From an uncultured virus (IMG/VR IMGVR_UViG_3300009551_000011) (lineage: Duplodnaviria; Heunggongvirae; Uroviricota; Caudoviricetes), in the IMG/VR virus record IMGVR_UViG_3300009551_000011: 64,000 nucleotides of DNA. One strand, 5' to 3'. Below, one piece after another: positions 35,022-58,945 of this stretch (position 1 is the first letter of the stretch; every line of letters begins with the position of its first letter). The notes below the pieces were generated by a model, which worked only from the letters and a program-made list of their open reading frames with translations, had not been told where the DNA came from and did not search any database. The translations under genes were made by a program, and so were the position numbers.

Positions 35022-35213
35022 CCACTTTCCGGGCGGATCATCAAACTACACAAGCCGTGATATTGGTGGCTTTACACCGCCCGGAATTCAACTTACAGGC
35101 AGCCCGCGAAACCGGTTCGTGGGAGCGCTCCGGCCAATACGTGAGGTGCGTTGTGGAAGTCAGAGTGTTCATGATTCACCTGCCTGGGATTACTTTGTTT
35201 GGGAGAAGATGCG

Positions 35214-36548
35214 ATGACTGCATTAACCGAAAGACCAAAGACCGAAAAGGCGCCTGTCCGCTTACTCTCCATCACAGCGGAGAACGTCAAGCGACTGCAT
35301 ACCGTTTTTATTGAGTTCGGCCCGGGTGTCACTGTTATCGGTGGCAAGAATGGAGCAGGCAAAAGCTCCACGATTGACGCGATATCCTATGCCATTGGCG
35401 GCGAGAAACTGATCTGCGAGCGCCCTATTCGCGATGGCGAGTTAGAGGCATTCGTCCGGTTGGACATGGGCGAGTACATCGTTACCCGGACATGGAAGCG
35501 CGACACGGTAGACGGTCCGGTGCGAACGAACCTGATCGTTGCTAATCCAGAAGGCGCGAAGTATCAAGCACAGCAGACACTCCTGAACAGCTTCTATTGT
35601 TCGTTCACGTTCGACCCGCTGGAGTTTTCCCGCCAAGACCCAAAGAAGCAGCTCGAAACGCTAAAGGCGCTTGTCGGTTTGGACCTCTCCGAATTGGACC
35701 GGGAGCGGGCAGCACTTTACGAGGAACGGACGCTTACCGGGCGTGACCTGACAGCGAAGAAGGGACAACTCACTTCCTGCGTTTTCCATGAGGATGCGCC
35801 GGCGGAAGAGGTGGATGTTCAAGCCCTCCAAGATAGACTCGCCGCGGCTTACGAGCATAACGGCGAGTATGACCGGTTCGCTGCAAGAATAGACGCGATG
35901 CGCACAGAGACAGAGCGGCGCAAGAACCATGTCGAGAATTACAAGGCTCAGATCAAGGAAACAGAGCGGCAGTTGCAGTTGCTTCGGGACGCATGCAAAG
36001 ACGCCACCACAGATTACGAAAACGCTGTAAGGCAAACCGAAGAGGCAATTGGCAAACAGGGCACGATGGAGCGCAAAGACACCTCCGCCATTGCCGCCCA
36101 ATTGACAGCCGCCCGCGACATCAATGCCAGGGTGCGAGACAACGCCCAACGTACCCGGGTTCAGTCCGAAGTGGACAAGATGAATGCCAGGTACGAAGAG
36201 TTCACCGCCAAGATCAACGGCGTAGAAGAGCGCAAGCGGCAGGCATTGGCCGCAGTCACCTTCCCGGTAGAGGGCTTGTCGTTCGATGAAACCGGCGTCC
36301 TCTTTAACGGAATTCCCTTCTCGCAGGCATCCTCCGCAGAATCACTTCGGGTTAGTGTGGCGATGGGCGCGGCAATGTCACCCAGGTTCCGAACGATGTT
36401 CGTCAAGGATGGCAGCCTGTTAGATACCGATTCAATGCGGCTTATGGCCGAACTCGCTGCGGAGCATGACTTCCAGATTCTAATGGAAAGAGTCGGAACG
36501 GGCGAAGAGGTCAATGTTGTGATTGAGGAAGGGTTGGTGGCGGCATGA
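35214..36548 (+). CDS. SMC/Rad50-like AAA ATPase
   Basis: Walker A GKNGAGKSS; coiled coil; SQASSAE signature; DGSLLD. Confidence 0.85.
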   Translation: MTALTERPKTEKAPVRLLSITAENVKRLHTVFIEFGPGVTVIGGKNGAGKSSTIDAISYAIGGEKLICERPIRDGELEAFVRLDMGEYIVTRTWKRDTVDGPVRTNLIVANPEGAKYQAQQTLLNSFYCSFTFDPLEFSRQDPKKQLETLKALVGLDLSELDRERAALYEERTLTGRDLTAKKGQLTSCVFHEDAPAEEVDVQALQDRLAAAYEHNGEYDRFAARIDAMRTETERRKNHVENYKAQIKETERQLQLLRDACKDATTDYENAVRQTEEAIGKQGTMERKDTSAIAAQLTAARDINARVRDNAQRTRVQSEVDKMNARYEEFTAKINGVEERKRQALAAVTFPVEGLSFDETGVLFNGIPFSQASSAESLRVSVAMGAAMSPRFRTMFVKDGSLLDTDSMRLMAELAAEHDFQILMERVGTGEEVNVVIEEGLVAA

Positions 36549-37522
36549 CCGCCCTACTTACCGAGCGCGAACAGTTCCTGAAAGAGCGGCAGACGCGTAT
36601 CGGCGGCACGGACATCGCCGCCCTCCTTCAGGTTCATCCGAATCGCGGGCCGGTACAGGTGTATCTCGAGAAGATTGGCAAGGCCAAGGCGGTTGAACCA
36701 AATGACCAAATGAAGCGGGGCACACGTGCCGAGCCTTATCTTGCCCAAACCTACACAGAATTGACCGGCAGGGAATTGGCGAAGTGTCCGACATATCGAC
36801 ACCCTGAATACCCTGAGTGCGGCGTAAGTCCCGATTACATGACGTCCGATGAAGCACTTTTGGTTGAGATCAAGTCGCACGAGTTCTTTGTTTCAAACCA
36901 GTACGGCGAATCTGGGTCGGATGTGTTTCCGCAGCACGAAGAAGCCCAATGTATGTGGGAAATGCACATCACGGGGATTCATCAGTGCGAGCTATTCGTC
37001 GGGTTTAGCTGGAGCGACTTGCGTACTTATCCGATTCGCTACGACCGCGAAGTTGCGCTCGGCATGGAGGAGGTTGCCCGCAAGTTCTGGCGCGATAATG
37101 TCCTCGCTGGTGTTGAGCCGGATATCACAGGCCTTGCAGCCGACACTGCCTACCTAAAAGAGCGAATGCGCAAGGATTCCGGCGCTACCATCAAGGCCGA
37201 TTACCAGACGGAATTGTTAATTCTAGAGCTTCGTGAAGCCATCACCAACTTCAATATTGCTGAGATGGAGAAAGAACGCCTCTCCAACTCAATCAAGAAG
37301 TTTATGCAAGACAACCAGAACGCCGCGATTTTACAGTGGAGCGGTGGCAAGCCAATCACATACAAGACAGACCGCGATTCGGTGGCCGAAACCTGCGACA
37401 CGGCAATGCTTAAAGCTAAGGCCCCTGAGATTTACAAGCAGTTGAAAGAACTCGGAATCATTGCAGATAGGGTGACGCGAAAAGGCGCCCGCAAACTCTG
37501 CCCAAACTTCCCAAAGGAATAG
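36545..37522 (+). CDS. YqaJ-like recombination exonuclease
   Basis: IGGTDIAA, G...EP, SPD, EIK and Q..W.M motifs. Confidence 0.88.
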   Translation: MTALLTEREQFLKERQTRIGGTDIAALLQVHPNRGPVQVYLEKIGKAKAVEPNDQMKRGTRAEPYLAQTYTELTGRELAKCPTYRHPEYPECGVSPDYMTSDEALLVEIKSHEFFVSNQYGESGSDVFPQHEEAQCMWEMHITGIHQCELFVGFSWSDLRTYPIRYDREVALGMEEVARKFWRDNVLAGVEPDITGLAADTAYLKERMRKDSGATIKADYQTELLILELREAITNFNIAEMEKERLSNSIKKFMQDNQNAAILQWSGGKPITYKTDRDSVAETCDTAMLKAKAPEIYKQLKELGIIADRVTRKGARKLCPNFPKE

Positions 37523-37526
37523 ACCG

Positions 37527-38621
37527 ATGACAATGACTGAACGCGGCTCCGCGCTTATGGAGCGCGAGGGTTTCAATGACGACGACATCACCATTATAGA
37601 CAATTCTGGTGCGGGGCTCATGGAGGCCCAAACACGCGGCGAGATTGATATCCAAATATCAACAGCGCGCAGGTTCCCGCGATCTATTCGCCTATTCCGT
37701 GATACAGCACTTGAGATGGCGACCCTTGATGAGCCAACCGCCGATTCATGCTTCTATGTTCTTCCGCGGTCTGGCAAGAACATAGAAGGACCCAGCGTCC
37801 GCTTAGCTGAGATTTGTGCTTCTGCCTGGGGGCACATGAGGGTCGAATCCCGAGTCGTTGCGGAGGATGAAAAGTTCCTGGTTGCACGAGCTGCGGCTTG
37901 GGACCTCCAAAACAATGTAGCCATTTCAATTGAGGTGCGTCGACGCATAACGGACAAGGGCGGTAAGCGTTATAACGACGACATGATCAGTACAACGGCG
38001 AATGCCGCCATCTCTATTGCTCTTCGTAACGCTGTATTCAAGGTTATTCCTGCTGCCTATACCAGAGCAATTTACATGGAATGCCGGCGCGTGGCAATTG
38101 GCGACGCCGCAACCCTGGCTGACAAGAGAGCTAAAGTGCTGGTTGCTCTTGCAAAAATGGGGGCCACCAATGACCGCGTATTCATGATGCTCGGCATTCG
38201 CGGTGAAGAAGACATCACCCTTGACCACCTCGGAACACTTAAAGGCATTGGAACTGCGATTCGCGATGGCGACACGACCGTTGACGAGGCGTTCCCCCTT
38301 CCCGGTGCAGTAGCGGCGGAATTGAAGCCTGAAAGCAAGCTGGCAGAGACGGTTAAGCGTGCCACTAAGAAGCAGGAGGCGCCTGTCGCAGAAGCCGCAC
38401 AAGAACCAATCTCAGCCCCGCCCCTCTCCGGCAGAGAGCAATTCCGTAACGCCGCGAATGCCATGAACTATCCGGTTCAAGGTGATGAGGATGTGAGGCT
38501 TCTGGCTGTCCAGTTCCTCGGCATTGACCGGGATACCGTGCTTACGGATGAGCAGTACATTGCGGCGATTGCTGAGTTGCCGAAGCCGGGGCCGAACGAA
38601 AAGCTGTTCGATGACCAGTAA
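37527..38621 (+). CDS. putative single-strand annealing/recombination protein
   Basis: follows YqaJ; QISTARRFPR, GPSVRLAE and ALRNAVFKVIP motifs. Confidence 0.6.
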   Translation: MTMTERGSALMEREGFNDDDITIIDNSGAGLMEAQTRGEIDIQISTARRFPRSIRLFRDTALEMATLDEPTADSCFYVLPRSGKNIEGPSVRLAEICASAWGHMRVESRVVAEDEKFLVARAAAWDLQNNVAISIEVRRRITDKGGKRYNDDMISTTANAAISIALRNAVFKVIPAAYTRAIYMECRRVAIGDAATLADKRAKVLVALAKMGATNDRVFMMLGIRGEEDITLDHLGTLKGIGTAIRDGDTTVDEAFPLPGAVAAELKPESKLAETVKRATKKQEAPVAEAAQEPISAPPLSGREQFRNAANAMNYPVQGDEDVRLLAVQFLGIDRDTVLTDEQYIAAIAELPKPGPNEKLFDDQ

Positions 38622-39500: not shown

Positions 39501-40232
39501 ATGAAGCACATCGTTGCCCTATCAGGCGGAAAAGACAGTACGGCAATGACTCTTCTGTTGAGGGAATTACACCCTGACAGGGAGTTTGAGTATGTCTACA
39601 CGCCGACCGGTGACGAACTTCCAGCCATGCAGATATTTTGGGTCGAACTTGGGCAGATACTCGGAAAACCGCTCATCCCGATTACCTGCGGCGAAACGCT
39701 CACATCGCTGATCGTGAAGCAGAATGCCATTCCTAACTTTCGGATGAGATGGTGTACACGGATGCTCAAACTTGAACCGTTCATCGCCTACGCCTTGAGC
39801 AATCTTCCGGCAACGCTCTATGTAGGCCTCCGGGCTGATGAGGATCTCCGAGACGGAGCAGTTTACGGCAAGGTTGAAGGCATCACTCAGTCGTACCCAC
39901 TTCAAGATAACGGCTTCACGCTGGCAAAGGTCTGGGATATCCTAGGCAGATATGGGATCGAGATTCCAGAGCGAACCGATTGCGCTCTCTGCTTCTTCCA
40001 GCGGCTTGCCGAGTGGTGGCGCTTATGGGCTTTTAACCGCGACCGATTCAATCTGGGCGTTGCTCTTGAGAAGCTGACGGGTCACACGTTCCGAACACCA
40101 GGGCGCGACACATGGCCCGTTTCACTTGAGGATTTAGGCAAACGATTCGAGGCTGGTGACATCCCAAAAGGGGCTGCGCAGATTCAGCTCATTTCCGACC
40201 GCCCGCAGATGTGCCGGGCATGCAGTTTATAA
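39501..40232 (+). CDS. PAPS-reductase-family (PP-loop) protein
   Basis: ALSGGKDSTA, RWCTRMLKLEP, VGLRADE and RTDCALCFFQ motifs. Confidence 0.85.
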   Translation: MKHIVALSGGKDSTAMTLLLRELHPDREFEYVYTPTGDELPAMQIFWVELGQILGKPLIPITCGETLTSLIVKQNAIPNFRMRWCTRMLKLEPFIAYALSNLPATLYVGLRADEDLRDGAVYGKVEGITQSYPLQDNGFTLAKVWDILGRYGIEIPERTDCALCFFQRLAEWWRLWAFNRDRFNLGVALEKLTGHTFRTPGRDTWPVSLEDLGKRFEAGDIPKGAAQIQLISDRPQMCRACSL

Positions 40233-40241
40233 GGATTTTGC

Positions 40242-40773
40242 ATGCTCTTCTTGCTCGACATGAACGGCGGCTACGACGAAGCAGCGGGAGAGTTAGGCGT
40301 TAAGCCTGCGGATGTCGGGCAACTGATTACGCCGCTGACGAGGTTCAAGAACCATGGACGCCAGCACTTCGGGATAGACAACGGTGCATTCAGCAGGTTC
40401 GACCCGAAGGCGTTCCGCAGTCTCCTGAAGCGTGAAGAACCTAACCGCAGCAAATGCCGGTTTGTGGTCGCAGAGGTGTTTGAACGGTGGAAACACCAGC
40501 TGGCAGGTTGGCCTATCGCATTAGCTTGTCAGGACGGGCAAGAGGACCTGCCGATTCCGATGGAAGATGAGCCGCCACGCTCATGCGATTGTGAAGGCGG
40601 CGCAGGCACTCGGTAAATGGACGCACGTCGGGCGCGTCAACACTCCTGCGAGGCTGGAAATACTGGAGGCCTGGGGTGTCAAGAGCGTGGACGGGAGCGG
40701 GATTAGCCAGTACAGCGACATGCGCAGGGATATGGCGACGAGACATGAGCAACTTAGTTTGATGGAGGTTTGA
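40242..40773 (+). pseudogene. split TGT/DpdA-like TIM-barrel gene
   Basis: IDNGAF and QDG in the first frame; HVGRVNT and SVDGSG in a second frame; frame change near 40560. Confidence 0.6.
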
Positions 40774-43536: not shown

Positions 43537-43890
43537 ATGGAAACTCGGATGAAGAACCATTGCGCGACGTGCGCCTTCAGGAACGGCACGGAGGCGAATA
43601 AAGATGACCTCACGCAGCAGAAGGTTGAACTCTGTATTGGCTCAGGCACGCCTTTCTTCTGCCACGAGGAAGGCACATCTCATCATCTTTGTGCGGGGTT
43701 CGCGAACGCTTTAGATGCCAAAGTAAAGCGCGGAGACTACAAGCCGGAGGACCAGTGGCGGCGGGATGTTCAGGTCGGATTACTGGCACTCATTACCGAG
43801 GCTGAGGAGTTTGACTGCACTCCTGAAGAGATAGACGCCATGCTGCGCAGGGTGCTTGTGCGTTGTTTTAATGAGATGCCGATCCGCTAG
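43537..43890 (+). CDS. Cys-rich hypothetical protein
   Basis: CATCAFR, FFCH and LCAG motifs. Confidence 0.6.
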   Translation: METRMKNHCATCAFRNGTEANKDDLTQQKVELCIGSGTPFFCHEEGTSHHLCAGFANALDAKVKRGDYKPEDQWRRDVQVGLLALITEAEEFDCTPEEIDAMLRRVLVRCFNEMPIR

Positions 43891-43981
43891 TTCAGGGTGC
43901 AAATTAGTTAGACAGAATTCACACATGAGGCTTGCCTGTGGTGGGCAGGAGGGTGACGCCCTGAACAGTCAGACAGACCTT

Positions 43982-44022
43982 GGCCGGAAGTTATGTTTGT
44001 CGGGCTTACCGGCCGCTTTTTT
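43982..44022 (+). terminator. intrinsic terminator
   Basis: GGCCGG-AAG...CTT-A-CCGGCC followed by T6. Confidence 0.6.
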
Positions 44023-44266
44023 AGTCTACTAATTAAGTTCAAATTATAGTAGACAAACACTTGATTTTTGCTGTCATATATGCGATAATAATCATGGCTT
44101 CCAACCAAAAAGACAACCCTATATTTGGCACTTTCCGCGCCCGATTCTTCACAGATTCGGCGTCGTTGCGCTATACTTACTCCCGGCCCCTTTTGGGTTC
44201 TCACATGGTTGGAAGCCTGTTGAGAATTCAATTGTGGGCCATTTTTGTGTCTGGCGGTTTTCGCAT

Positions 44267-44923
44267 ATGAAATCATCGCAATACATAGACGAGAATCCAT
44301 TCGGCGAGTACATGCCGTCGAACCCATTACAGCGCCAATCTGTGCCCGAATGCGGGAATCATGAGCGCGCCATTCTGGGATACTTGACGCTCATTCCGGT
44401 TTGCGATGCGCTCCTGATAAGTAACGTGCTTCACCCGAAGGACTTGCAGTTTCCTCTTCATGCCGCTATCTACAGGCGAATCGTTATACATGCCCGCGCC
44501 GGGAGAATGGTGGTTGAGGCCGTCACAAACGGCGTAGATCGCTGGCTAACTACCGATATCGGATACGTAAATCCTCGTCGTTATTTAGGATTTTGTATTG
44601 AAATTGCTTGCGACAACAACGAAGAAGCGATGGTTTGTGTTGAGTGGATTCAGGAATGCGCTGCACGTAGACGCCGATTTGAAGCGTTACGAAAAGCACT
44701 TGAGATGGTGACGAATCTTGACAAACCCGTTGAGCAAATTGACAGGGCAATCGATGCACTCAACTTCGAAGCCCGCAAGGTAAACCAGGGGCTTTCAGTC
44801 TCAAAATCAACGACCGCGATTCCGGTTGCTAAGTCCAGCACGGTCGTTCCATACAACCAAAATCCTCGCTACGAACTGAAGGGAACGAATACTGGAAGCC
44901 CGAGCCATTCAAGCGTGAAGTAG
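44267..44923 (+). CDS. stand-alone DnaB N-terminal-domain-like protein
   Basis: ERAILG.L, L.P.D...PLHAAIY and I.E.AARRR pattern; no ATPase domain. Confidence 0.6.
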   Translation: MKSSQYIDENPFGEYMPSNPLQRQSVPECGNHERAILGYLTLIPVCDALLISNVLHPKDLQFPLHAAIYRRIVIHARAGRMVVEAVTNGVDRWLTTDIGYVNPRRYLGFCIEIACDNNEEAMVCVEWIQECAARRRRFEALRKALEMVTNLDKPVEQIDRAIDALNFEARKVNQGLSVSKSTTAIPVAKSSTVVPYNQNPRYELKGTNTGSPSHSSVK

Positions 44924-45291
44924 TAGACGAGTTAGTAGACGAGTTGTTATACGGTATGTAACAGATCCGCAAACGGTGTTTTCCCAGGCTGACCGAAACT
45001 CAAGCCGCCGAGACTGTATAGCGCATCCGGGCAATGGCAGGATGCAACTGTAGGCGAGACAAGCGCAAATCATCTGGAAGTATGACGGGTTTCGGTGTAA
45101 AGGCCGATTCGACCAACTGTGTTCTCCTATGCACGCTGCGAAACAGCGGGAGTTTTGTGAGTTGGCAGTCCAGGTGTCCTATGTGTAGTTAGTGCAGTTT
45201 GACACGGCAAGTCAAATGCATAAAAACACAGGGTCAAAGAACCCGTAGGAATCAAAGTTAGAACTCATTAGTCCTATTTTGGAGGTATGGC

Positions 45292-46152
45292 GTGGATATT
45301 GAAGTGTATCAGTTTACTCGGAAGGAAGCAGAGGCGGCTGTTGAGCGGTTCTTTGCAGTAGGTGTCCAAGTTCGGCACCTTATTTTGGAGATGCACGAAC
45401 GCAAGGCGGATAAGGCTCTCGGATACTCCACCTTTGAAGAGTTCACACGGGACAGGCTCGGCGCAGATTGGAACGATGGTTACCTTCGACAGCTTCGAAT
45501 GTGGGCGAGTGTAGAGCGGCAGGTTTTGGTCGATGTGGAGAAACAGCGACTTACAAAACGGATGGTTGACGAGCTTCTGCGGCTTCCAGATGAGAAGCGC
45601 AAGCAGGCTTTTGAAGAAGCGTCCATGCTGCACGCGGATAATCCGCTGCGCGACCTGAAGCATATCGTCAACCGGATGCTCGGCACATCGGACAAATACG
45701 GCAAAGCGAGGGAGACGACTGCTTCTCCTGAGCCGGAGGTGCCGGTCGGAGCGATTGTTGATGTTCATACCGGCAGACCAGTTGTTGAGGTTCATTCTAC
45801 GCCAACTCCAGCCAGAGAAGATGCCAAACCGATCATCGCTGATTTTGGAAAAGGCAATCACACCTTTGAGATCAAGAAGGAAGCGAATCAAGCGCCAATC
45901 ATAGAGGCAATACCAGAGGAACCGCGCGACCCGTTTGCAGATGAAGCGGAGGGTGACGAAGTGCTACATGACGAGGAGCTTTATTACCTATCCGATGAGA
46001 CTCAGAAGAAGCTCGCACAGTTCCGCAAGTTTTGGAACATGACCAGCGACCTTGAAACGGTCGAGAAGATTATCAACCAGCTTTACACGACGTACAGCAA
46101 CAAGCCGAACTTTGCCAAGCTCGCGGAGCAGACCCATGACGCAAATTCTTAG
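45292..46152 (+). CDS. hypothetical DNA-associated protein
   Basis: GGAGG RBS; KALGYSTFEEF motif. Confidence 0.6.
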   Translation: MDIEVYQFTRKEAEAAVERFFAVGVQVRHLILEMHERKADKALGYSTFEEFTRDRLGADWNDGYLRQLRMWASVERQVLVDVEKQRLTKRMVDELLRLPDEKRKQAFEEASMLHADNPLRDLKHIVNRMLGTSDKYGKARETTASPEPEVPVGAIVDVHTGRPVVEVHSTPTPAREDAKPIIADFGKGNHTFEIKKEANQAPIIEAIPEEPRDPFADEAEGDEVLHDEELYYLSDETQKKLAQFRKFWNMTSDLETVEKIINQLYTTYSNKPNFAKLAEQTHDANS

Positions 46153-47956
46153 ACCTTACCAGCATGGAACCGTGGAGGCGGTCTTTGATGCCATGGACCC
46201 GTTCGGCGAATCGTTGAACCGGGTGCTCTATGTGCTTTGCACAGGCGCGGGAAAGACAACAACCTTCTCCGAGATTATCAAGCGGTTCCTAGACGATGAC
46301 AAAAAGGTTCTCGTTCTCGCGCACCGCAAAGAGCTAATCACTCAGGCATACAACCGCATCAAAGACCACTGCGAATTGACCCCCTGGGAGATTGGCATAG
46401 AGTTGGCTGAACATCGGGCGCATACGAGTAACCGGGTAATCGTTGGGTCAGTTCAGACATGCGCGAAGGAAGGGCGACCTGGCACAGCTTTCCAGCCGGA
46501 TGTGATTATTGTTGATGAGGCGCACCATGCAAGTAGTAACAGCTATCGGAAGATTGCCACGCGGTACGGCGTAGATGAGGGCCGGTGCATGTACATAGGA
46601 TGCACAGCCACCGCAAAGCGTACGGACAGGATGAGCTTGTATGCAAAACACCTAGACGGCTCGCCTGTTATGTTGGAGCGCAAGGGAAGGCCGGCGCGGC
46701 CTGCGTGTGAGACTGAATCAGTATTCCAGCGGCTTGTGTATGAGTACGGAATGCTTGCTGCCGTGGATGAAGGCTGGTTGACTCCTATCATCGGTCATGT
46801 GGTTGAGACAGAGACCGACATCAATGAAGTGGAGACAGCCCGCGATGGTGATTTCAACGAAGGTCAACTTGCAAAGGTAGTTGATGATAAGCAGCGTACT
46901 TTGCTGGCTATCAACGCATGGAAAAAGCTTGCCGCGGATCGGCCAACCCTCGTATTTTGTGCGTCCGTAGAACATGCACACCATGCGGCAGACCTGTGGA
47001 GGCAGGCAGGATACACGGCCCAGGCTATAGATGGTGAAACCGAAAACTGGGATCGGACTACCTACTTTAGCAACTTCAAGGAAGGGCGCCTTCAGGTTAT
47101 TACCAACATGGGTGTTGCTACTGAAGGGACCGACCTGCCGACATGTTCCTGCATCGTCCATCTTCGGCCAACAAAGAGTTGGAACCTGTACGTCCAGATG
47201 AGCGGGCGCGGCACAAGAGCGTTACCCGGTGTGTTGGACCACCTACAGGAAGCGGAACCGATTGAGCGGTTGCGAGCAATCGAAAGCAGCGCGAAACCGA
47301 ATTGCTACGTTATTGACATGGTGGACCTGTACGACAAGTGCGGCGACATTTGTACTGTTCCGTCCATCCTTGATTTGCCGGTGAAACTGGATCTTCAGGG
47401 GCACAGTTTGACGGAAGCAAAGAAGCTGCTGGATGAATTTGCAGAGGTCAAAGATCGCGTTATTGGAGAGTGTCCAACAACATACAAGGACCTTGAAGTT
47501 CGTCTGTCGGAGGTGAATCTGATGCGAACAAGCGGTGCGAGATCTACTCAGGATTGGAAGGCGACGGATACTGGATACCGGTTTATGAAGGTGCCGCCCG
47601 CTTATACCTGCGAGATGCTCCGTAACGGTGAAGGGTATCAGCTCATCGTAAAGCACAAGAGCGAAACCATATTGGATAAGACAGGCAAAGAAGGTCACGA
47701 CATGAGGTCCTATCTGGACAAAGCGCAAGAACGGGCAACGCAAGCCATAACTGCGCATCGCGAAGCACAGCCGAAAATATCACGCGGAACGCTCAATCGG
47801 TTGACGCCAAAGCAGGCGTCGGTTCTACGCCGTAACGGACATAACAATGTTGAGATCGATTCGTTTCCATATGCTAAGGCCAAGGCGCTTATTCAGACGT
47901 ACATGAACGCTTGGCGGGCTTCACAGGCACAGCAATCCGAGACGGTGGCAGCATAG
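46136..47956 (+). CDS. superfamily 2 (DEAH) helicase
   Basis: LRPYQ, TGAGKT, DEAHH, TAT, TEGTD and QMSGRGTR motifs. Confidence 0.92.
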   Translation: MTQILRPYQHGTVEAVFDAMDPFGESLNRVLYVLCTGAGKTTTFSEIIKRFLDDDKKVLVLAHRKELITQAYNRIKDHCELTPWEIGIELAEHRAHTSNRVIVGSVQTCAKEGRPGTAFQPDVIIVDEAHHASSNSYRKIATRYGVDEGRCMYIGCTATAKRTDRMSLYAKHLDGSPVMLERKGRPARPACETESVFQRLVYEYGMLAAVDEGWLTPIIGHVVETETDINEVETARDGDFNEGQLAKVVDDKQRTLLAINAWKKLAADRPTLVFCASVEHAHHAADLWRQAGYTAQAIDGETENWDRTTYFSNFKEGRLQVITNMGVATEGTDLPTCSCIVHLRPTKSWNLYVQMSGRGTRALPGVLDHLQEAEPIERLRAIESSAKPNCYVIDMVDLYDKCGDICTVPSILDLPVKLDLQGHSLTEAKKLLDEFAEVKDRVIGECPTTYKDLEVRLSEVNLMRTSGARSTQDWKATDTGYRFMKVPPAYTCEMLRNGEGYQLIVKHKSETILDKTGKEGHDMRSYLDKAQERATQAITAHREAQPKISRGTLNRLTPKQASVLRRNGHNNVEIDSFPYAKAKALIQTYMNAWRASQAQQSETVAA

Positions 47957-51129: not shown

Positions 51130-51726
51130 ATGTCAGCACATCGTGCTTCTAATTCATTAACAACCAGGCAGGAAAAGGCGGCCGCCCTACTCGCTGTTGA
51201 TAGCATTTCAGATGTCGAAATCGCTGCCAAATGTGGGATTACGGATCGGTCACTCAACCGATGGAAATCTAACCCGCAATTCGCCGCTCGCGTTCAAAAG
51301 TTACGCGATGAAGCCGCCGAGCGCATCAGGGAAGAGGTCATAACTACTGGCATAGCCGACCGGGTAAACCGCGTCAAGCGCCTGAACGATGACTGGATCC
51401 GAATGCAGCAGGTAATCAAAGAGCGCGGCGAATCGGCTGAGATGGAGGAGATACCTGGCGGTCAAACCGGCCTCCTGGTTCGCCAAATCAAGGGTATTGG
51501 CAAGGGTGAAGATTTCCAGATTGTTGAGATGTACGCCGTTGATGCCGCTCTACTCTCCCAGTTAACTGCACATGAGGCGGCGGCGGCTAAGGAACTCGGA
51601 CAAACCATTGACCGCCACGAGATAGATGTCAGAGATACAACTGCTGCAGACTCGCTTGACCGCAAACTGGCTGGCCTCGCTGCCCGAATCGGAGCGCCTC
51701 CAGTTCCTAGCGAGCCTGAGCCATGA
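51130..51726 (+). CDS. terS: terminase small subunit
   Basis: N-terminal HTH (EIAAKCGITDRSLNRWK..PQF); AAKELGQ; directly upstream of terL. Confidence 0.75.
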   Translation: MSAHRASNSLTTRQEKAAALLAVDSISDVEIAAKCGITDRSLNRWKSNPQFAARVQKLRDEAAERIREEVITTGIADRVNRVKRLNDDWIRMQQVIKERGESAEMEEIPGGQTGLLVRQIKGIGKGEDFQIVEMYAVDAALLSQLTAHEAAAAKELGQTIDRHEIDVRDTTAADSLDRKLAGLAARIGAPPVPSEPEP

Positions 51727-52972
51727 GGAGCGGGAAGAGCTCTTCTACAAGTGGAGTTTCTGGGCCCGAGACGCACAAATCAGTCCGCCAGGCGATTGGC
51801 GCTGCTGGCTCATCCTTGCAGGCAGAGGATTCGGTAAGACGCGGATTGGCGCCGAAGTCGTAAGGGCTATAGCTGAGACCGGCGAGGTTGGACGAATTGG
51901 TCTAATCGGGCAGACTGCGGCCGACGTGCGCGACGTTATGGTTGAAGGAGAGAGCGGGATACTCGAAATCTCTCCTCCATGGTTCAGGCCGAAGTACGAG
52001 CCATCAAAGCGCCGCCTGACATGGCCGAACGGAGTCAAGGCGACAACCTTCTCAGGTGATGAGCCCGACCAGCTCCGCGGACCGCAGCATGGCTTAGTCT
52101 GGGCAGATGAGCCGGCCAAATGGAAGTACCCGGATGACGCATGGTCCAACATGGAATTCGGTCTGCGTACCGGAGATCATCCGAGGGTAGTGGCAACAAC
52201 CACGCCCAGGCCGATAAAGCTGATCCGTGAACTGGTGAATGACCCGACGACACACGTCACACGCGGTTCGACCTATGACAATTACGGCAACCTTGCTCCA
52301 TCGTTCATTCAAAAGGTTCTCACCCGTTACGAGGGCACGAGACTCGGCAGGCAGGAGCTTCTAGCCGAAATCCTTGACGACAATCCGGGCGCATTGTGGC
52401 AGCGCTCTATGATAGACGCGCTCCGGGTTAAGACCGCTCCGGACCTATTCAGAATTGTTGTTGCTGTTGACCCGATGGTGGCCGATGTGAATACCGCCGC
52501 CAATCTCGAGGATGAAGGCTCAGCCTGCGGGATCGTGGTGTTTGGCGTGACGGAAGGCCCAGACGGGCACGGGTATGTGCTTGAAGACAAGACGGTCTTC
52601 GGTTCACCGAACGAATGGGCGGCTACCGCGGTCAACGCCTATCTTGAGCATAAGGCGGATCGGATAGTCGCAGAAACAAATCAGGGCGGCGCGATGGTCG
52701 ATTTCACCATTCGGACGGTTGCCCGCGATATGGGCGTAAGGGTTTCGTACCGGGGTGTCCATGCATCCAGAGGCAAGTATGTACGAGCTGAGCCAGTCGC
52801 CGCTCTGTACGAGCAGAAGAGGGTTCATCACGTAGGCAGCATGCCCGACCTCGAGGATGAGCTTTGTAATTGGGAACCTGGACAACCTTCACCTAACCGG
52901 TTGGATGCCCTTGTATGGGGAGCGACCGACACGATGGTTGAGAACGTGAAGCGACAGGCACGGACGGCTTAA
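51626..52972 (+). CDS. terL: terminase large subunit
   Basis: AGRGFGKTR Walker A; VWADE Walker B; TTTP; VAVDP; NRLDALVW. Confidence 0.95.
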   Translation: MSEIQLLQTRLTANWLASLPESERLQFLASLSHEEREELFYKWSFWARDAQISPPGDWRCWLILAGRGFGKTRIGAEVVRAIAETGEVGRIGLIGQTAADVRDVMVEGESGILEISPPWFRPKYEPSKRRLTWPNGVKATTFSGDEPDQLRGPQHGLVWADEPAKWKYPDDAWSNMEFGLRTGDHPRVVATTTPRPIKLIRELVNDPTTHVTRGSTYDNYGNLAPSFIQKVLTRYEGTRLGRQELLAEILDDNPGALWQRSMIDALRVKTAPDLFRIVVAVDPMVADVNTAANLEDEGSACGIVVFGVTEGPDGHGYVLEDKTVFGSPNEWAATAVNAYLEHKADRIVAETNQGGAMVDFTIRTVARDMGVRVSYRGVHASRGKYVRAEPVAALYEQKRVHHVGSMPDLEDELCNWEPGQPSPNRLDALVWGATDTMVENVKRQARTA

Positions 52973-53213: not shown

Positions 53214-53744
53214 ATGAGCGAAACCGCAGCCGCCCGCGAAACCCTCGCTCCGTACTGCTCCGAGCCCATCGGTATCGACTTTGGATTCGGCGGCGACAAA
53301 ATCGTTCCTCACGCATGGGCGTTCGATATGTCGCAAGCTTACACATCGGTCGGAGGTGACAGGCAGCAGGTGATTGCCTACGCTGATCGCCCTCTTCAGT
53401 TTCTTGCCGATGGCGCGATGGATTGGATTTACTCCTCTCATCTTCTCGAAGATTTCCACTACTTTGAACTCTCTTCCGTGCTTCGTGAATGGCGGCGTGT
53501 CCTAAAGTCCGGCGGATTGCTCGTCACCAATTGCCCAGACCAACAGAAATTCGTCGCACACTGCACGGCACACATGGAACGCACCGGCCAGGATATCCGC
53601 AACCTGGCCCACAAGGAAGCCGATTTCAGCCTTGAGACGTTCCGCGCGGTCCTAAACCAGACGGGTGCATGGGAAGAGGTCTTTGTGCAACCGGAGGCGG
53701 GGGCGTACAGTTGGTATTTGGTTGTCCGAAAGGTTGGAGCATGA
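53214..53744 (+). CDS. class I SAM methyltransferase (Methyltransf_11-like)
   Basis: IDFGFGG, IYSSHLLED and EWRRVLKSGG motifs. Confidence 0.8.
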   Translation: MSETAAARETLAPYCSEPIGIDFGFGGDKIVPHAWAFDMSQAYTSVGGDRQQVIAYADRPLQFLADGAMDWIYSSHLLEDFHYFELSSVLREWRRVLKSGGLLVTNCPDQQKFVAHCTAHMERTGQDIRNLAHKEADFSLETFRAVLNQTGAWEEVFVQPEAGAYSWYLVVRKVGA

Positions 53745-54079
53745 CAAGCGCGCCTCAGTTCACATTGCCGCCCTTGACCCTTGACGGACTCCTTGATGTC
53801 ATGAAGCAGATTAGGACGCCTCCGCCTCTACCAAAACTGTTCGCTGGCGATCCGTGCGACAAGGTATTGGATGCCTTAGGCGTCCATAAAGTACCCGGCC
53901 CGTTCGAGCGATGGGCTTCAAATCACTACGAGATGGCTATCGTCACGGATCCATTCATGCCTGCCAACACTATACGGTTCGAGCATCCAGACGGGCGCAT
54001 CGATGTACTTGTCTTACAGGAGGATGGCTCCGTCGCTAACATCCCGGTTCCCTCTAGCCCGTTTACGGAGGTCAAATGA
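53741..54079 (+). CDS. hypothetical protein
   Basis: ATGA-coupled at both ends. Confidence 0.55.
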   Translation: MTSAPQFTLPPLTLDGLLDVMKQIRTPPPLPKLFAGDPCDKVLDALGVHKVPGPFERWASNHYEMAIVTDPFMPANTIRFEHPDGRIDVLVLQEDGSVANIPVPSSPFTEVK

Positions 54080-54795
54080 ACGCCCAAGTAGTCACGGTCT
54101 CGTCCCATGTTCCCACGCAAAGCTACTACCGCCCGGACGCTTACCTTGCGTCCCTTCATCGATTCGCAGAGGTGCCTACAATCCTCGGCGCCGGCGAAAC
54201 ATGGAGCGGTCTAATGACAAAGCCCTTCCTGCTCCGCGATTGGCTGCGCAAGGGCAACAACACGAGCGACCGGATCATCTTCACCGATGCGTGGGACATC
54301 CTCTTCCTCGCCCATCCTCACGGCATTGGAGACCGCTGTATTGAGTGGTTCGGTGCCGATGTGATCGTCTTCAATGGCGAGCGCAACATATGGCCGCGTG
54401 GTGACCTCAAAGAGCAGTTCCCGGACACCGGCCCATGGCGCTACCTCAACAGCGGGTTCATGTGCGGCAGCGCTGAGAACATCCTCAAACTGCTGGAGTC
54501 GATGGATCTCGAGAGTATCGGAGTGGACCGCACCAATCCAGACGGCAGCAAGACGGAGCCTAACGATCAGGCCTACTTCCAGGAAGCCTACACAAAGCAA
54601 GTAGTACCGATGGTGGTCGATGGCTCCTGCAAACTAGCGATGACCTTCTCCGCTACAGGTGACGAGGATTTCGATTTGCGCGACCGGGTTCTCACCAACA
54701 AGCTAACCGGCACCACTCCGGGCGTGGCTCACTTCAACGGGTCGGGTATGAACGACCACTTTCACAAGTTCCTTGCACATTGGGAGTTACCATGA
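54076..54795 (+). CDS. PLOD/LH3-type GT-A glycosyltransferase domain protein
   Basis: IIFTDAWD, VFNGERNIWP, RYLNSGF..G, DQ.YF and HFNG motifs. Confidence 0.8.
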   Translation: MNAQVVTVSSHVPTQSYYRPDAYLASLHRFAEVPTILGAGETWSGLMTKPFLLRDWLRKGNNTSDRIIFTDAWDILFLAHPHGIGDRCIEWFGADVIVFNGERNIWPRGDLKEQFPDTGPWRYLNSGFMCGSAENILKLLESMDLESIGVDRTNPDGSKTEPNDQAYFQEAYTKQVVPMVVDGSCKLAMTFSATGDEDFDLRDRVLTNKLTGTTPGVAHFNGSGMNDHFHKFLAHWELP

Positions 54796-55028
54796 ACAGA
54801 CGACAGGCGATTCAAGCGATAGGCGGCGGAACCTTAGCGGTCGCGATGGCGGGCAAGATAGACGCTAAAACTGTAGGTAGTGGCGACGTTGTTCTTATCA
54901 CTACACGAGAAGGGTCCACCTGCTCAATTGAAGATATTCGGGACGACATCATCAAGGCACTTCCGCAGTTGGCCGGGCGAGTGGTAATTCTCGACGGTTT
55001 TGACGTTACAGTGGTGTCTGCGAAATGA
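54792..55028 (+). CDS. small protein with twin-Arg-like N-terminus
   Basis: MNRRQAIQ followed by a hydrophobic stretch. Confidence 0.5.
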   Translation: MNRRQAIQAIGGGTLAVAMAGKIDAKTVGSGDVVLITTREGSTCSIEDIRDDIIKALPQLAGRVVILDGFDVTVVSAK

Positions 55029-55035
55029 GGACCGC

Positions 55036-55752
55036 TTGAATCCCTACACCATGCACGGCGTGACCTTCAACGTCAACGAAGAAGGAGAAGGTGCTTGCCA
55101 CGTCTTCAATCCTGATCGTCCAGAGGCTACCGACCGCGGCCCGGCTGGTATGGTTGCTGAGATGACGCGGTTCGTAGAGCTATCCAAAGATAAGCGGTCA
55201 CTACTGGATGTAGGCGCGCTGTTCGGCGTGTTCTCCATGGTCTTTTGTGCGCTTACCGGCGGCACGGCATACGCGATAGAGGCTTCACCGTGGGCGTTTC
55301 CGATTCTGATGGATCACGTGCGGGCAAACCCTACGCTAGACTTCGGTCATGGACAGTTCTTTCTAGGCGACACCCCATATCGTGAAGTGAACTGCGCTCG
55401 CGATTGGAAGCATGTCATTGCCAATCTGGACCGCCCAGACAGTGAGCAGATCACGATTTATGAGGCGCGACTCGACGACATCCTGCCCGCCGAATACTTC
55501 GTGGACATCATGAAGATTGACGTCGAGGCGTATGAGGTTCAGGTCTTGCGGGGTGCCGAGAACCTAATCCGGAGATGCCGCCCGCTGATGTTCATCGAAC
55601 TGCATACCGCGACCCTACCGGACAACGGCGAATCGCTTGAAAGTTTCATGGCGCTCATGGACGATTACGGATACACGACTCGAAATTATGACGGATCTCT
55701 GGCAAACGATATCCTGCCAAACAGCATGACGAGGGTGATTGCATGGCCATGA
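55036..55752 (+). CDS. FkbM-family methyltransferase
   Basis: LDVGALFGVFS, AIEASP, MKIDVEAYE..VLRGA and FIELH motifs. Confidence 0.88.
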   Translation: MNPYTMHGVTFNVNEEGEGACHVFNPDRPEATDRGPAGMVAEMTRFVELSKDKRSLLDVGALFGVFSMVFCALTGGTAYAIEASPWAFPILMDHVRANPTLDFGHGQFFLGDTPYREVNCARDWKHVIANLDRPDSEQITIYEARLDDILPAEYFVDIMKIDVEAYEVQVLRGAENLIRRCRPLMFIELHTATLPDNGESLESFMALMDDYGYTTRNYDGSLANDILPNSMTRVIAWP

Positions 55753-56291
55753 GCTACGTCGAGCGAGCCGCTGCCGCAGGCGTGACCGGCTTCCTCCATC
55801 CATGCGAGGCCGAGAAACTGCCGGAACTAGCACAGGGCCGCGTCTGCCTTGAGGTTGGCGCTTTCGAGGGCTATAGCACATGGTTGATGGCTCAGACGGC
55901 GGTAAGCGTATTCTCTGTGGATACCTTCCAAGCAAATACGGCCGGCACCGTCCAGATGGACGAGCTAACCACGCTCGACAAGTATAAGCGCACGATCGAG
56001 GGACTGCCGAACGTTGATTACTACATCGGCACGAGTGCACTGTATGCGGCAACTGCGCGGCGCGACAAGCAGGAATACGACCTCATCTTCCTTGACGCTG
56101 ACCATTCGTACGAGGCAGTGAAGCAGGACATCGCGCTCTGGTGGCCGCGTCTCAAGGACGGCGGCATCATGGCCTTCCACGACTACCACCCCGAGCATAG
56201 TTACTTCCCGGGCGTGTATCAGGCGGTGACGGAGCGGTTTGGGGAGTTGCCGAATCGCGAGATTACGCTGGGATGGATGGTGAAGGAATGA
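55749..56291 (+). CDS. class I SAM methyltransferase (Methyltransf_24-like)
   Basis: LEVGAFEGYST, DLIFLDADHSYE and LKDGG..AFHDY motifs. Confidence 0.88.
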   Translation: MSYVERAAAAGVTGFLHPCEAEKLPELAQGRVCLEVGAFEGYSTWLMAQTAVSVFSVDTFQANTAGTVQMDELTTLDKYKRTIEGLPNVDYYIGTSALYAATARRDKQEYDLIFLDADHSYEAVKQDIALWWPRLKDGGIMAFHDYHPEHSYFPGVYQAVTERFGELPNREITLGWMVKE

Positions 56292-57205
56292 GCACAATCG
56301 CAAATTCAGCTATCAAAAAAATGCAGGAAATTGGCAGTACGTTTATGCAGGAGCAAAGCCTAGATGATCTGCTCTATTACTCACGCATTGATATGGAGGA
56401 TACATCTTGGCGAAGCCTTATTTCCCGGCTTGGCCATCGGTTAATTACAGGCACTATTACGCCGGTAGTTTGGGATATGGAAATTTGGAAAGCGTCCCAA
56501 AACAATTACGAGTCGTTTCTTGGGCCTGAACCTCCTGTTCGGTCTTTCGAGAATTCAAACCAAGCCTTCGACATATTTAGCAAGAACCTGAAATCCCATG
56601 CCCACAACGACCCAGATATTCAATTGTGGTTGTTTTCCAGTGGTGACAGCCTTATCGATGCCACTGAAAGTGTTTGGACGAGTTTTGAATCAGAATCTTA
56701 TTTTCAGCAAAATCCAATCGACTCTTGTGAAGGGTTTGTTGTGTTCCCGAATAATCAGAACCTTTTGCTGCGAATTGTTTGGCAAACCATTATTGTTGAA
56801 AATGGTGGATTCCTCACGCGAACAATCAGTACGCCAAAGTACGCTGCCGATTGCCTCGGAGCGCGCGTTCAAGCGGGCCTTAAATACATGGCTCTCCCAT
56901 TTGTAGCTATGGAATGTCAGCGAGCCTCACATTCAACCCGCAAAGCATTCACGAGGATAAACCAGCAGTGCCCAGATATCCGAACGGTTACATTGCGAAG
57001 GCGGCAGACAAGTCTAAGGTCGGAAGAGACATCTGCCGGGTTTAAATATTCATGCCAGTGGCTAGTGGGCGGGCACTGGCGCAAACTGCATGAGCCTAGA
57101 AAGGCGGATGGCGCAGAAATAACATACGTGACACCGCACTTAAAAGGACCCGAAGGCAAGCCGTTTCGCGCTCCCAGGCAGACGGTTTATGCGGTGAACC
57201 GATGA
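56288..57205 (+). CDS. hypothetical protein with C-terminal V.GHWR...PH.KGP motif
   Basis: WLVGGHWRK..YVTPHLKGPEGKP; more AT-rich than its neighbours. Confidence 0.65.
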   Translation: MSTIANSAIKKMQEIGSTFMQEQSLDDLLYYSRIDMEDTSWRSLISRLGHRLITGTITPVVWDMEIWKASQNNYESFLGPEPPVRSFENSNQAFDIFSKNLKSHAHNDPDIQLWLFSSGDSLIDATESVWTSFESESYFQQNPIDSCEGFVVFPNNQNLLLRIVWQTIIVENGGFLTRTISTPKYAADCLGARVQAGLKYMALPFVAMECQRASHSTRKAFTRINQQCPDIRTVTLRRRQTSLRSEETSAGFKYSCQWLVGGHWRKLHEPRKADGAEITYVTPHLKGPEGKPFRAPRQTVYAVNR

Positions 57206-58692
57206 ATCAGCCAATCTGCCTAATAACCCCGCCCAGCCCGTTCCTTATGGATGAGCGCGTGTTTCTGTCCCTCGGCATCCTCCGCGTGGCCGCCGTGTTG
57301 GAGCAGGCAGGGCATACCGTAGAGATGATTGACCTCTCCGGGATTGAGAACTTCGAGCAGGCGGTCAATGCCCATGCTTCCCGCTCCTCCGCCTCTGTCT
57401 TCGGCCTAACAGCGACAACCCCGCAGATGCCCGCGACAACGCTGATTGTGCAGGCTATCCGATCCGTTCGGCCCGATGCACGCATCATCTTAGGCGGGCC
57501 GCACGTCACGCTGGTGAACGCGGCGAAGCGGAGGGAAGATAAGCGCGGAATCGTAGGCGGTCGCGCAGGCAAGGCGTTCTCGTCGCTTGAGACCATGTTT
57601 GATGTGTTGGTTGCTGGTGATGGTGAGGATGCGATATTTCACGCGCTTATGCCCGATGCGCCGAAGCTGATTGACGGGGATGACGCGGCGAGTCAGTTGT
57701 TCTTGACGAATGAGCGGTATGACAAACTGCCGCTGCCTGCGAGGCATTTGGTGGATGTGGACAGCTACCACTACAGCATTGACGGGGTGCCCGCGATCAG
57801 CCTTATTGCGCAGCTCGGTTGCCCTTATATGTGTTCTTTCTGCGGCGGCCGTAATAGCCCGATGCTGAGACGGATCCGAACGCGTACCACGGAGAGTGTA
57901 GTTGCCGAGATGCGGCACCTGTACGAAGCCCATGGGATGCGCGGCTTCATGATGTACGACGACGAGCTCAACGTAAACAAGCAGATCGTTGAACTGATGG
58001 ACGCGATTCATGCCCTTCAAGTGGAGTTAGGCGTAGAGTTCCGTCTCAGGGGTTTCATCAAGTCCAACCTATTCACAGATGCCCAGGCGGCGGCCATGTA
58101 CCGCGCTGGCTTCCGGTGGATTCTCGTCGGATTCGAATCAGGCTCGCCTCGCATCCTGGAGAACATCCAGAAGAAGGCGACACGCGAACAGAATACCGAG
58201 TGCATGGAGATTGCGCGGCGGCATGGGCTGAAGGTCAAAGCGTTGATGTCAGTCGGTCACGCTGGAGAGAGCGCCGAGACGATTCAGGATACGCAGGATT
58301 GGCTAATGGAGCAGAAGCCGGCCGATTTCGATTGCACGGTGATTTCGACGTATCCAGGGACCGCCTACTATGACGACGCAGAGGAAACCGAACTTGGGAT
58401 ATGGACGTACACCGCGCCGAAGTCAGGAGACCATCTCCATGCGGTGGAGATCGACTTCAATACGACCGCTGAGTATTACAAGGGCGTGCCGGGTGAATAC
58501 ACATCCTACGTCTACACCGATTATCTGAGCGCTGAGGAGATCGTCGCGCGGCGGGATAGGTTGGAAAACGATGTCCGCGCGGCCCTGAACATTCCCTTCA
58601 ATGCGGGTGCGCCAGGTCTTCGGTATGAAGCGAGCATGGGGCAGTTGCCGGGGCACATTCTGAGAACGAGTAACGAGTTGGTAGCTGCTTAG
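57202..58692 (+). CDS. cobalamin-binding radical SAM protein
   Basis: LGILRVAAVL, IILGGPH and GDGE (B12 domain); CPYMCSFC; YDDE; GFESGS. Confidence 0.92.
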   Translation: MNQPICLITPPSPFLMDERVFLSLGILRVAAVLEQAGHTVEMIDLSGIENFEQAVNAHASRSSASVFGLTATTPQMPATTLIVQAIRSVRPDARIILGGPHVTLVNAAKRREDKRGIVGGRAGKAFSSLETMFDVLVAGDGEDAIFHALMPDAPKLIDGDDAASQLFLTNERYDKLPLPARHLVDVDSYHYSIDGVPAISLIAQLGCPYMCSFCGGRNSPMLRRIRTRTTESVVAEMRHLYEAHGMRGFMMYDDELNVNKQIVELMDAIHALQVELGVEFRLRGFIKSNLFTDAQAAAMYRAGFRWILVGFESGSPRILENIQKKATREQNTECMEIARRHGLKVKALMSVGHAGESAETIQDTQDWLMEQKPADFDCTVISTYPGTAYYDDAEETELGIWTYTAPKSGDHLHAVEIDFNTTAEYYKGVPGEYTSYVYTDYLSAEEIVARRDRLENDVRAALNIPFNAGAPGLRYEASMGQLPGHILRTSNELVAA

Positions 58693-58702
58693 GTGGTAAG
58701 TT

Positions 58703-58912
58703 GTGGAAATGGTTCCTCACAGCGACATAGCCATACGGTCAAACAAATCGGAATTCCGTATTCCAATGATCGTGTTTATGCGGCTGGATGAAGAGACGTT
58801 GAACGATTTTTGGGCTAAGGTGTTCGCCGAAGCAAAGCGCGAAGGATACCAGACGGTACATCGTACGAGGGATGTTGCGGCCATGGAGTACGTTTTCACG
58901 TTCGTGCGGTAA
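58703..58912 (+). CDS. hypothetical protein
   Basis: ORF in operon. Confidence 0.45.
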   Translation: MEMVPHSDIAIRSNKSEFRIPMIVFMRLDEETLNDFWAKVFAEAKREGYQTVHRTRDVAAMEYVFTFVR

Positions 58913-58924
58913 GTTGTGGATTCA

Positions 58925-58940
58925 ACCGTTGGGAGGCGGT
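58925..58940 (+). repeat. ACCGTTGGGAGGCGGT hairpin repeat, copy 2
   Basis: exact copy, 5 nt before the ATG at 58946. Confidence 0.85.
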
Positions 58941-58945
58941 GAGGT

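Follow-up and report, generated by a model that had tools for sequence, protein, structure and literature searches.

The 64,000-nucleotide (nt) stretch of the uncultured virus record IMGVR_UViG_3300009551_000011 (IMG/VR; Caudoviricetes), hereafter called the window, carries a gene for a free-standing N-terminal domain (NTD) of the helicase DnaB, followed by a non-coding spacer, a 286-aa protein without known family and a superfamily 2 (SF2) helicase. Both the gene order and the spacer itself are conserved in an independent, diverged locus, one hairpin of the spacer covaries between the two loci, and short repeats cluster around the DnaB-NTD gene. Based on these sequence comparisons the spacer is read as a selected, single-copy, non-coding cis element in a replication/recombination operon. 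Concerning its function, we tentatively favour a cis-acting phage origin or a region for replisome or primosome assembly over a control element of the messenger RNA (mRNA), the latter being nearly as likely. The locus consists of the following elements:

44267-44923, + strand: stand-alone DnaB-NTD protein, 218 aa (profiles, family profile, fold).
44924-45291, strandless: conserved non-coding spacer, 368 nt, with a counterpart of 426 nt in the related locus L004 (gap, alignment, G+C content).
45292-46152, + strand: 286-aa protein without known family, candidate DNA-binding or initiator protein (family search).
46139-47956, + strand: SF2 helicase with ResIII and Helicase_C, phrog_16 (Pfam, PHROGs); its start at ATG 46139 is placed according to the L004 homolog.

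A preliminary description of the window, made from the letters alone, had likened the first protein to the N-terminal domain of DnaB only, and both family and fold bear this out. The single sequence of open reading frame (ORF) 44267-44923 gives a weak match to phrog_19 (E 5e-4) and falls below the cut-off of 23 for PF00772 (E 0.15, 12.6 bits). An exhaustive HMMER search of 1.84 billion representatives at E<=0.001 returned a rare family of 7 proteins, the query included, to which a word-based search added a 68%-identical relative (P0002). PF00772 is matched by 7 of the 8 family members with a best E of 4.5e-9, and members match NCBIfam DnaB models as well. The family profile in turn finds the NTD of Mycobacterium tuberculosis DnaB (2r5u, E 5e-6) and also Bacillus-type DnaBs. 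Throughout the family, Glu33, His65 and Arg137 of the core motif do not vary.

The structure of the protein alone was predicted with AlphaFold2. The model built from the family alignment has the DnaB NTD fold, with a predicted local distance difference test (pLDDT) of >84 for residues 30-170; a fold from the single sequence reached a pLDDT of 38 and was useless. In Foldseek the top matches of the model are all DnaB NTDs, none of them at E<=0.001. VIA-align gave Z values of 14.5-15.8 against DnaB NTDs, among them that to 7t20_B (E. coli DnaB residues 25-176; Z 15.6, root-mean-square deviation 2.2 Å over 147 residues). Taken together, profiles and model lead us to regard ORF 44267-44923 as established to be a free DnaB collar domain. 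It is laid out as a head and a helical hairpin (residues ~25-176) and shares this fold with the bacterial DnaB NTDs (PF00772; PDB 2r5u, 7t20, 2r6a), whereas the disordered tail of ~45 residues that follows is a feature of the window copy and not of the DnaB NTD. The C-terminal helicase-binding domain of DnaG (PDB 5z51, 6cbr, 1z8s, 4im9), a free-swinging adaptor that binds the DnaB collar, is a structural cousin but a clearly poorer match to the model (Z 8.3-9.6), and no DnaG families appear among the Pfam and NCBIfam results for the family.

Compared to the complete DnaB helicase (TIGR00665; PF00772 and PF03796) the protein has neither the linker helix nor the RecA-type C-terminal motor; the chain stops after the hairpin. 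DnaB_C gave no match at E<=1 in the six frames of a 43.5-kb twin contig of the window. Most family members are 155-172 aa long and end directly past the helical hairpin, and the end point is the same in members down to 26% identity, which speaks for an ancient, stable truncation. No family member fused into a longer protein was found, which is weak evidence. In tblastn neither the DnaB-NTD protein nor the 286-aa protein matched GenBank phages or a plasmid collection, PADLOC defence models returned 0 families for each, and in a shallow literature search we came across neither a phage protein consisting of the DnaB NTD alone nor a function for DUF3102, a family that bears on the 286-aa protein (see below). 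The protein apparently defines a rare, undescribed stand-alone family.

The conservation of the locus was evaluated on two independent DNA loci, the window and L004, a metagenome contig of 3.2 kb. L004 carries a RecT-like gene (73-1056; phrog_561, E 5e-22), then after a 2-nt spacer the DnaB-NTD gene, a gap of 426 nt, a gene homologous to that of the 286-aa protein and the first part of the SF2 helicase gene. Protein identity to the window is 40% for the DnaB-NTD protein and 44% for the 286-aa homolog, which also starts with GTG, here behind AGGAGG. Scans of viral contigs for further relatives returned only the twin contig from IMG/VR (G001; L001, L002, L003, L009), which extends past the window end and is identical across 43880-45300, so that it holds no comparative information. 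Two hits of a DNA-pattern scan (L007, L008) lie in high-GC structural genes of unrelated phages and were dropped as chance; a 27-residue match in a betaproteobacterial metagenome-assembled genome from a genome scan (L005) was set aside too. The surroundings of the DnaB-NTD gene differ between the two loci. In the window 5.6 kb of other genes separates it from the recombination genes, and the protein at 37527-38621 (phrog_3657), equivalent in position to the RecT of L004, is not homologous to it.

In the window the spacer is bounded by the stop codon at 44921-44923 and by the GTG at 45292 behind GGAGG, which confirms the formerly noted ~350 nt without a sense ORF. A crude, greedy ORF call leaves no longer part of the window without an ORF (350 nt, with 331 and 312 nt next, a small margin). 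Its G+C content of 48.4% is 5.7 points below that of the window (54.1%), and the L004 gap is likewise lower than its contig (52.3% vs 59.5%). Nucleotide identity to L004, calculated in 60-nt windows, amounts to 0.58-0.73 over 44960-45290; for the flanking genes it ranges over 0.42-0.82 and is mostly 0.5-0.67. Under strict local alignment, 44975-45089 matches L004 1684-1798 at 67% identity; the score of 28 compares to 18.0 +/- 2.2 with a maximum of 26 in 200 shuffles. The pattern is one of exact blocks between fully diverged stretches, with frame-breaking indels and without common start or stop codon. A blastn search of the gap against phages gave no match. The conserved parts of the spacer are the following, the hairpin and each of the blocks being single copy in the phage:

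44935-44967, strandless: conserved block GTAGACGA(G/C)TTGTTA ... TAACAGAT enclosing a small, imperfect palindrome (aligned pairwise with L004 1610-1644).
45023-45045, strandless: conserved hairpin or inverted repeat with a 6-bp stem and an 11-nt loop containing CAATGG (L004 covariation).
45076-45089, + strand: conserved block GGAAGnATGACGGG (L004 alignment).
45122: conserved block TTCTCCnATGCAC (L004 alignment).
Near 45215: conserved block ATGCA..AAA..ACAG (L004 alignment).

The first of these blocks is single copy in L004 as well, and the consensus fold of the block (palindrome 44944-44964) is not significant (z -1.2).

A small protein-coding gene hidden in the spacer was considered as one reading. 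A stretch of 26 residues is indeed 46% identical between a window frame and an L004 frame, and L004 has an open frame of 108 codons (1685-2011) across the conserved blocks. However, the matching window frame has no start codon and is interrupted by stops, three frame changes are needed to follow the L004 frame, and the ORF of L004 is unmatched in PHROGs. A hand count for the best block puts 7, 9 and 13 mismatches on codon positions 1, 2 and 3, which is not clearly periodic. A hidden gene is thus very unlikely. With an adjoining gene that encodes the N-terminal part of DnaB only, the spacer could also be a functionless, decaying remnant, e.g. of the lost DnaB C-terminal domain, and constraint could be overstated from two sequences. 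The empty six-frame search for DnaB_C and the old, stable end point of the stand-alone family argue against it, as do a gap as conserved as its coding flanks at 40% protein identity and a hairpin whose pairing is kept via double changes. We therefore consider a remnant unlikely.

The preliminary description had taken the spacer for a functional element near replication genes, and in so far as gap and position are kept in a relative of ~40% identity this part stands. Its basis was a fold into two multibranch domains, which fails both the shuffle test and the comparison with L004. The complementary stretches do exist, and the helix 44992-45001/45087-45096 that closes domain 1 comprises 10 bp with one G-U. 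Compared to dinucleotide shuffles, however, the fold of the gap shows z-scores of +0.50 (+ strand) and -1.06 (- strand). Folded alone, domain 1 reaches -1.57 and domain 2 -1.36, and both together reach -0.65. Within the 368-nt context the pair probability of the 10-bp closing helix is ~0. Standard pairs are found in L004 for 17 of the 33 pairs of domain 1, 14 of the 40 of domain 2 and 4 of the 10 of the closing helix. If hairpin 45023-45045 is taken out, 9 of 25 remain in domain 1. By our own arithmetic a standard pair between random bases has a chance level of ~6/16; hence the retained pairs outside this hairpin are near chance. The consensus fold of the whole gap is not significant (z -1.4 on the + strand, -0.6 on the - strand), and neither is that of the hairpin 45134-45148 (z -1.8). 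Columns 130-300 reach -2.3 on the + strand vs -0.1 on the - strand.

Hairpin 45023-45045 is the one part of the proposed fold that covaries. All 8 of its pairs are kept in L004, four of them via a two-sided change (three of the six stem pairs and one inner pair), and none is broken, while CAATGG in the loop is unchanged. Its column-shuffle z-score is -5.9 on the + strand and -5.6 on the - strand with 0 of 150 shuffles as good, and no second hairpin of this kind with a 6-bp stem occurs in the window. The inner pair reads U-G in L004 on the + strand, to which A-C would correspond on the opposite strand. With compensated changes in the stem and an unchanged loop, the hairpin agrees better with a single strand that folds, either RNA or unwound DNA, than with a plain double-stranded operator. 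We regard the covariation as suggestive, not as proof.

No Rfam family reaches its gathering score anywhere in the window, and none matches 43890-45300 on either strand at E<=1. No sigma-70-like promoter was found in the window gap, and neither promoter nor terminator in that of L004. These results bear on two readings in which the spacer would act as an RNA of its own. The preliminary description had put forward an origin of ColE1 type, with an R-loop formed by a large folded primer RNA, and nothing beyond a non-coding region near replication genes speaks for it. The two-domain fold lacks both conservation and a stability above chance, promoter-like sites are missing in either gap, Rfam is silent, and there is no RNase H family among the Pfam and PHROG results; of all readings it receives the least credence. 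A small non-coding RNA transcribed independently from either strand, between a promoter and a terminator of its own, would agree with a conserved non-coding sequence containing one conserved hairpin, and weak terminator-like sites are present in the window gap at 45134-45148 (+) and 45244-45231 (-). Their hairpins have 5 bp, though, and the lack of promoter-like sites, of any such site in the L004 gap and of an Rfam match, together with fold energies at shuffle level, make a separate small RNA quite unlikely.

The strongest competitor is an intercistronic leader or processing element of the mRNA, by which translation, stability or read-through would be set for the two genes downstream, those of the 286-aa protein and the SF2 helicase. 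In that case an RNA stem-loop, bound by a protein or cut by an RNase, would form at 45023-45045. Neither gap contains a convincing terminator or a sigma-70-like promoter; the spacer is thus probably co-transcribed. The distance from GGAAGnATGACGGG to the GTG start is 216 nt in the window and 219 nt in L004, and that from TTCTCCnATGCAC is 170 nt in both. Such nearly fixed distances agree with an mRNA element, and so do the inner hairpin pair of L004, which is U-G on the + strand only, and the strand bias of the consensus fold in columns 130-300. On the other hand, the consensus fold of the whole gap and the single-sequence folds do not stand out from shuffles, no Rfam family is matched, ~400 nt is long for a leader, and the GTAGAC repeats at the 5' edge of the spacer resemble DNA sites. 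Weighing both sides we hold an mRNA element for possible, and for nearly as probable as the origin.

Repeats, together with signals for a new transcription unit, were found upstream of the DnaB-NTD gene and at its end:

43975-44020, + strand: terminator-like hairpin and T-run (site 43999-44013), closing the upstream transcription unit after ORF 43537-43890.
44024-44054, strandless: inverted repeat GTCTACTA-N15-TAGTAGAC directly before the -35 hexamer, resembling an operator or activator site (repeat search).
44061-44089, + strand: promoter-like TTGATT-17-GATAAT with an extended -10 TG (9 of 12 consensus matches).
44096-44217, + strand: structured 5' leader, its ends paired (44096-44107 with 44206-44217) in a 12-bp stem without mismatch (repeat and fold).
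44921-44944, + strand: two tandem 12-mers TAGTAGACGAGT overlapping the stop codon (repeat search).

The octamer TAGTAGAC occurs in 5 copies within the 64 kb where 0.6 are expected, and 0 of 100 shuffles reach 5. Four of the five copies lie at 44024-44940 and bracket the DnaB-NTD gene. Copies with one mismatch cluster at 44285-45573 (5 of 23 in the window), which is a noisy signal. The L004 counterpart of the tandem 12-mers is a related inverted repeat, GTCTACCT-N18-AGGTAGAC, 6 nt past the stop codon. By their appearance, the TAGTAGAC repeats look like binding sites for a phage protein. The region 43970-44030 folds with -19.0 kcal/mol into a GGCCGG/CCGGCC stem. The promoter-like site 44061-44089 is a consensus match only, with 2 such sites in the region vs 1.7 expected.

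The 122-nt leader begins about at the predicted transcript start. The fold of the region 44070-44275 has a z-score of -2.87 on the + strand and -3.50 on the - strand, with 0 of 200 shuffles as good. The N-terminal extension that the gene caller assigned to P0002 covers a homologous leader, and its back-translation can be aligned with window 44048-44274 if frame shifts are allowed. The P0002 leader is compatible with all 12 stem pairs. Five of them are fixed by the protein sequence and 5/5 pair, one by a change from T-A to A-T. The leader is not present in L004, where the DnaB-NTD gene abuts recT. Two further candidates were rejected, namely an 11-nt inverted repeat (44078-44088/44258-44268), for which 7 pairs are compatible in P0002, 3 are not and 1 falls on a gap, and a 10-nt complement (44167-44176/45016-45025) at about chance level by a rough estimate.

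The preliminary description had found no initiator, loader, primase or polymerase in the window. Profile and six-frame searches agree in that no such family is recognised, which may only mean that there is no recognisable initiator. Neither PHROGs (run on 75 window ORFs) nor Pfam (run on 58) revealed an initiator, DnaC-type loader, primase or polymerase, and a six-frame search of the twin contig found nothing at E<=1 for Toprim_2, Prim-Pol or IstB/DnaC. Temperate phages without a primase or polymerase of their own are ordinary, lambda being the textbook case.

The 286-aa protein may be an unrecognised initiator. It has no match in Pfam, PDB sequences, NCBIfam, PHROGs or PADLOC, and its family consists of 11 clusters, all unnamed; the family was not found in a sample of 401 genomes from one phylum. 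The sole lead is a language-model similarity to DUF3102 clusters, which Pfam does not confirm at E<=1. A complex prediction of the 286-aa protein with the DnaB-NTD protein gave a score of 0.04 (mark 0.32) and thereby no answer. At residues ~145-165 most of the 11 members carry the motif EPEVPVGA(V/I)VDVxTGRPV in an otherwise variable, proline-rich linker, and this motif could be a docking peptide for a partner protein. In PADLOC the SF2 helicase matched nothing but generic SF2 motor regions, and the nearest helicases in GenBank phages are ~30% identical to it.

In the origin reading, the locus would be the core of the replication/recombination operon of a temperate soil siphophage. A new transcription unit would start behind the terminator at the promoter-like site, guarded by the GTCTACTA/TAGTAGAC inverted repeat, and would encode in this order the free DnaB collar domain, the spacer, the 286-aa protein and the SF2 helicase. 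The spacer would serve as the single-copy cis site where the replication proteins assemble. A phage protein, with the 286-aa protein as the likeliest candidate, would bind the GTAGAC repeats at the 5' edge of the spacer. Unwinding or transcription of the DNA would make the stem-loop 45023-45045 recognisable, and the fixed-distance blocks lie downstream of it. DnaB, DnaG and DNA polymerase III of the host would be used by the phage. In favour of this reading count the established DnaB-NTD family and fold, the kept gene order and spacer, the covarying hairpin, the clustered repeats, the single-copy elements, the lowered G+C content in both loci and the lack of a recognisable initiator, loader, primase or polymerase, whereas phages with the nearest helicases have a separate primase/helicase.

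The free DnaB NTD could act as an adaptor in this process, either by binding the host primase or by heterodimerising with the collar of host DnaB, and bring it to the phage DNA. Such a role is suggested because the DnaB NTD docks the DnaG C-domain and forms collar dimers (2r6c, 7t22). By analogy to the known roles of DnaB, recruitment of primase is plausible. In studied bacterial replisomes the DnaB collar is the primase docking platform, and helicase loaders act on or around the collar. A farther-reaching version of this proposal is a hybrid replisome, in which an SF2 motor and a separate DnaB collar that docks the host primase (or captures host DnaB) are assembled by the 286-aa protein on a hairpin-bearing origin. 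We regard this hybrid replisome as unlikely.

Several observations weigh against an origin. A classical iteron array is not present, the repeats at the spacer being limited to the two tandem 12-mers and one inverted repeat. GC skew tracks transcription without a switch at the locus. A marked AT-rich unwinding element was not found inside the gap; the AT-rich stretch (27% GC) is located at 44020-44100, upstream of the DnaB-NTD gene. The hairpin was chosen after being seen, and its covariation comes from one sequence pair. Near-constant distances between block and start codon fit an mRNA leader equally well, and the DUF3102 lead is the only link between the 286-aa protein and DNA binding. Moreover the whole case is limited by the comparison of two loci and by the rarity of the family.

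Iteron plasmids, phage-inducible islands and some phages have their origins beside the initiator gene. Like iteron-type origins, the window has a non-coding region near replication genes, with short repeated motifs and lower G+C content. Unlike them it has no more than one tandem pair and one inverted repeat, lacks a clear AT-rich unwinding element in the gap and encodes no recognised initiator family.

In the Eru1 type of Shiga toxin (Stx) phages, according to PMC8044961, a DEAD/DEAH helicase is paired with a Toprim protein, and DUF1367 belongs to the module as well. The Eru1 type and the Tunturiibacter phages Tunturi_3 and Tunturi_4 resemble the window in carrying an SF2 helicase (phrog_16, ~30% identity) in an early operon, and HNH, methyltransferase and RusA genes near the helicase are a further feature common to the window and SF2-helicase modules of temperate phages. 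In contrast, the Eru1 and Tunturi modules include a Toprim primase or a primase/helicase, the latter as a separate gene near the helicase in the Tunturiibacter phages, and none of these is detectable in the window by the PHROGs, Pfam and six-frame searches. Instead the window module has the DnaB-NTD protein, the conserved spacer and the 286-aa protein, which is unmatched in GenBank phages and the plasmid collection.

To our knowledge all known bacterial replisomes keep the coupling of helicase and primase within one DnaB chain, and the hybrid replisome, if true, would represent a split form of it. That a phage encodes the collar platform alone, within a conserved operon that also holds an SF2 helicase and a conserved non-coding site, suggests an undescribed route by which this coupling is hijacked or rebuilt. 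A free collar that binds DnaG or DnaB of the host would lend itself naturally to use as a tool for, or an inhibitor of, that interface. For a group of soil phages without a recognisable initiator, the locus also offers a concrete candidate origin.

Profile scans (PHROGs, Pfam) describe the window as a temperate siphophage with the following further genes:

1605-2924: major head protein.
9170-12091: tape measure.
18142-18675: endolysin.
24272-24694: SSB.
27376-28371, - strand: integrase.
30520-31200, - strand: helix-turn-helix repressor-like protein.
35199-36548: SbcC-like ATPase.
36545-37522: RecE/YqaJ exonuclease.
From 51130: terminase small subunit.
51626-52972: terminase large subunit.
62219-63625: portal.

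A listing of sequencing runs contains the stretch in one DNA run, possibly the source sample, and lists no RNA run. The SSB gene is situated beside the lysogeny region, ~20 kb off the helicase module, and is set apart from the other replication and recombination genes. Two overlapping ORFs in different frames, 40242-40616 and 40567-40773, adjoin a PAPS-reductase-like gene (39501-40232). The latter of the two ORFs corresponds to the C-terminal portion of phrog_15826, and both may be a single frameshifted gene. Modification enzymes occupy ~9 kb at 53214-61668 between the terminase large subunit and the portal, which is unusual in place and load. By Pfam they comprise methyltransferases at 53214, 55000 (FkbM-type), 55743 and 60943, accompanied by a PLOD-type glycosyltransferase (54076-54795) and a B12-binding radical SAM enzyme (57202-58692). 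A group-1 glycosyltransferase of 696 aa (5629-7719) is found amid the head-tail connector and tail genes.

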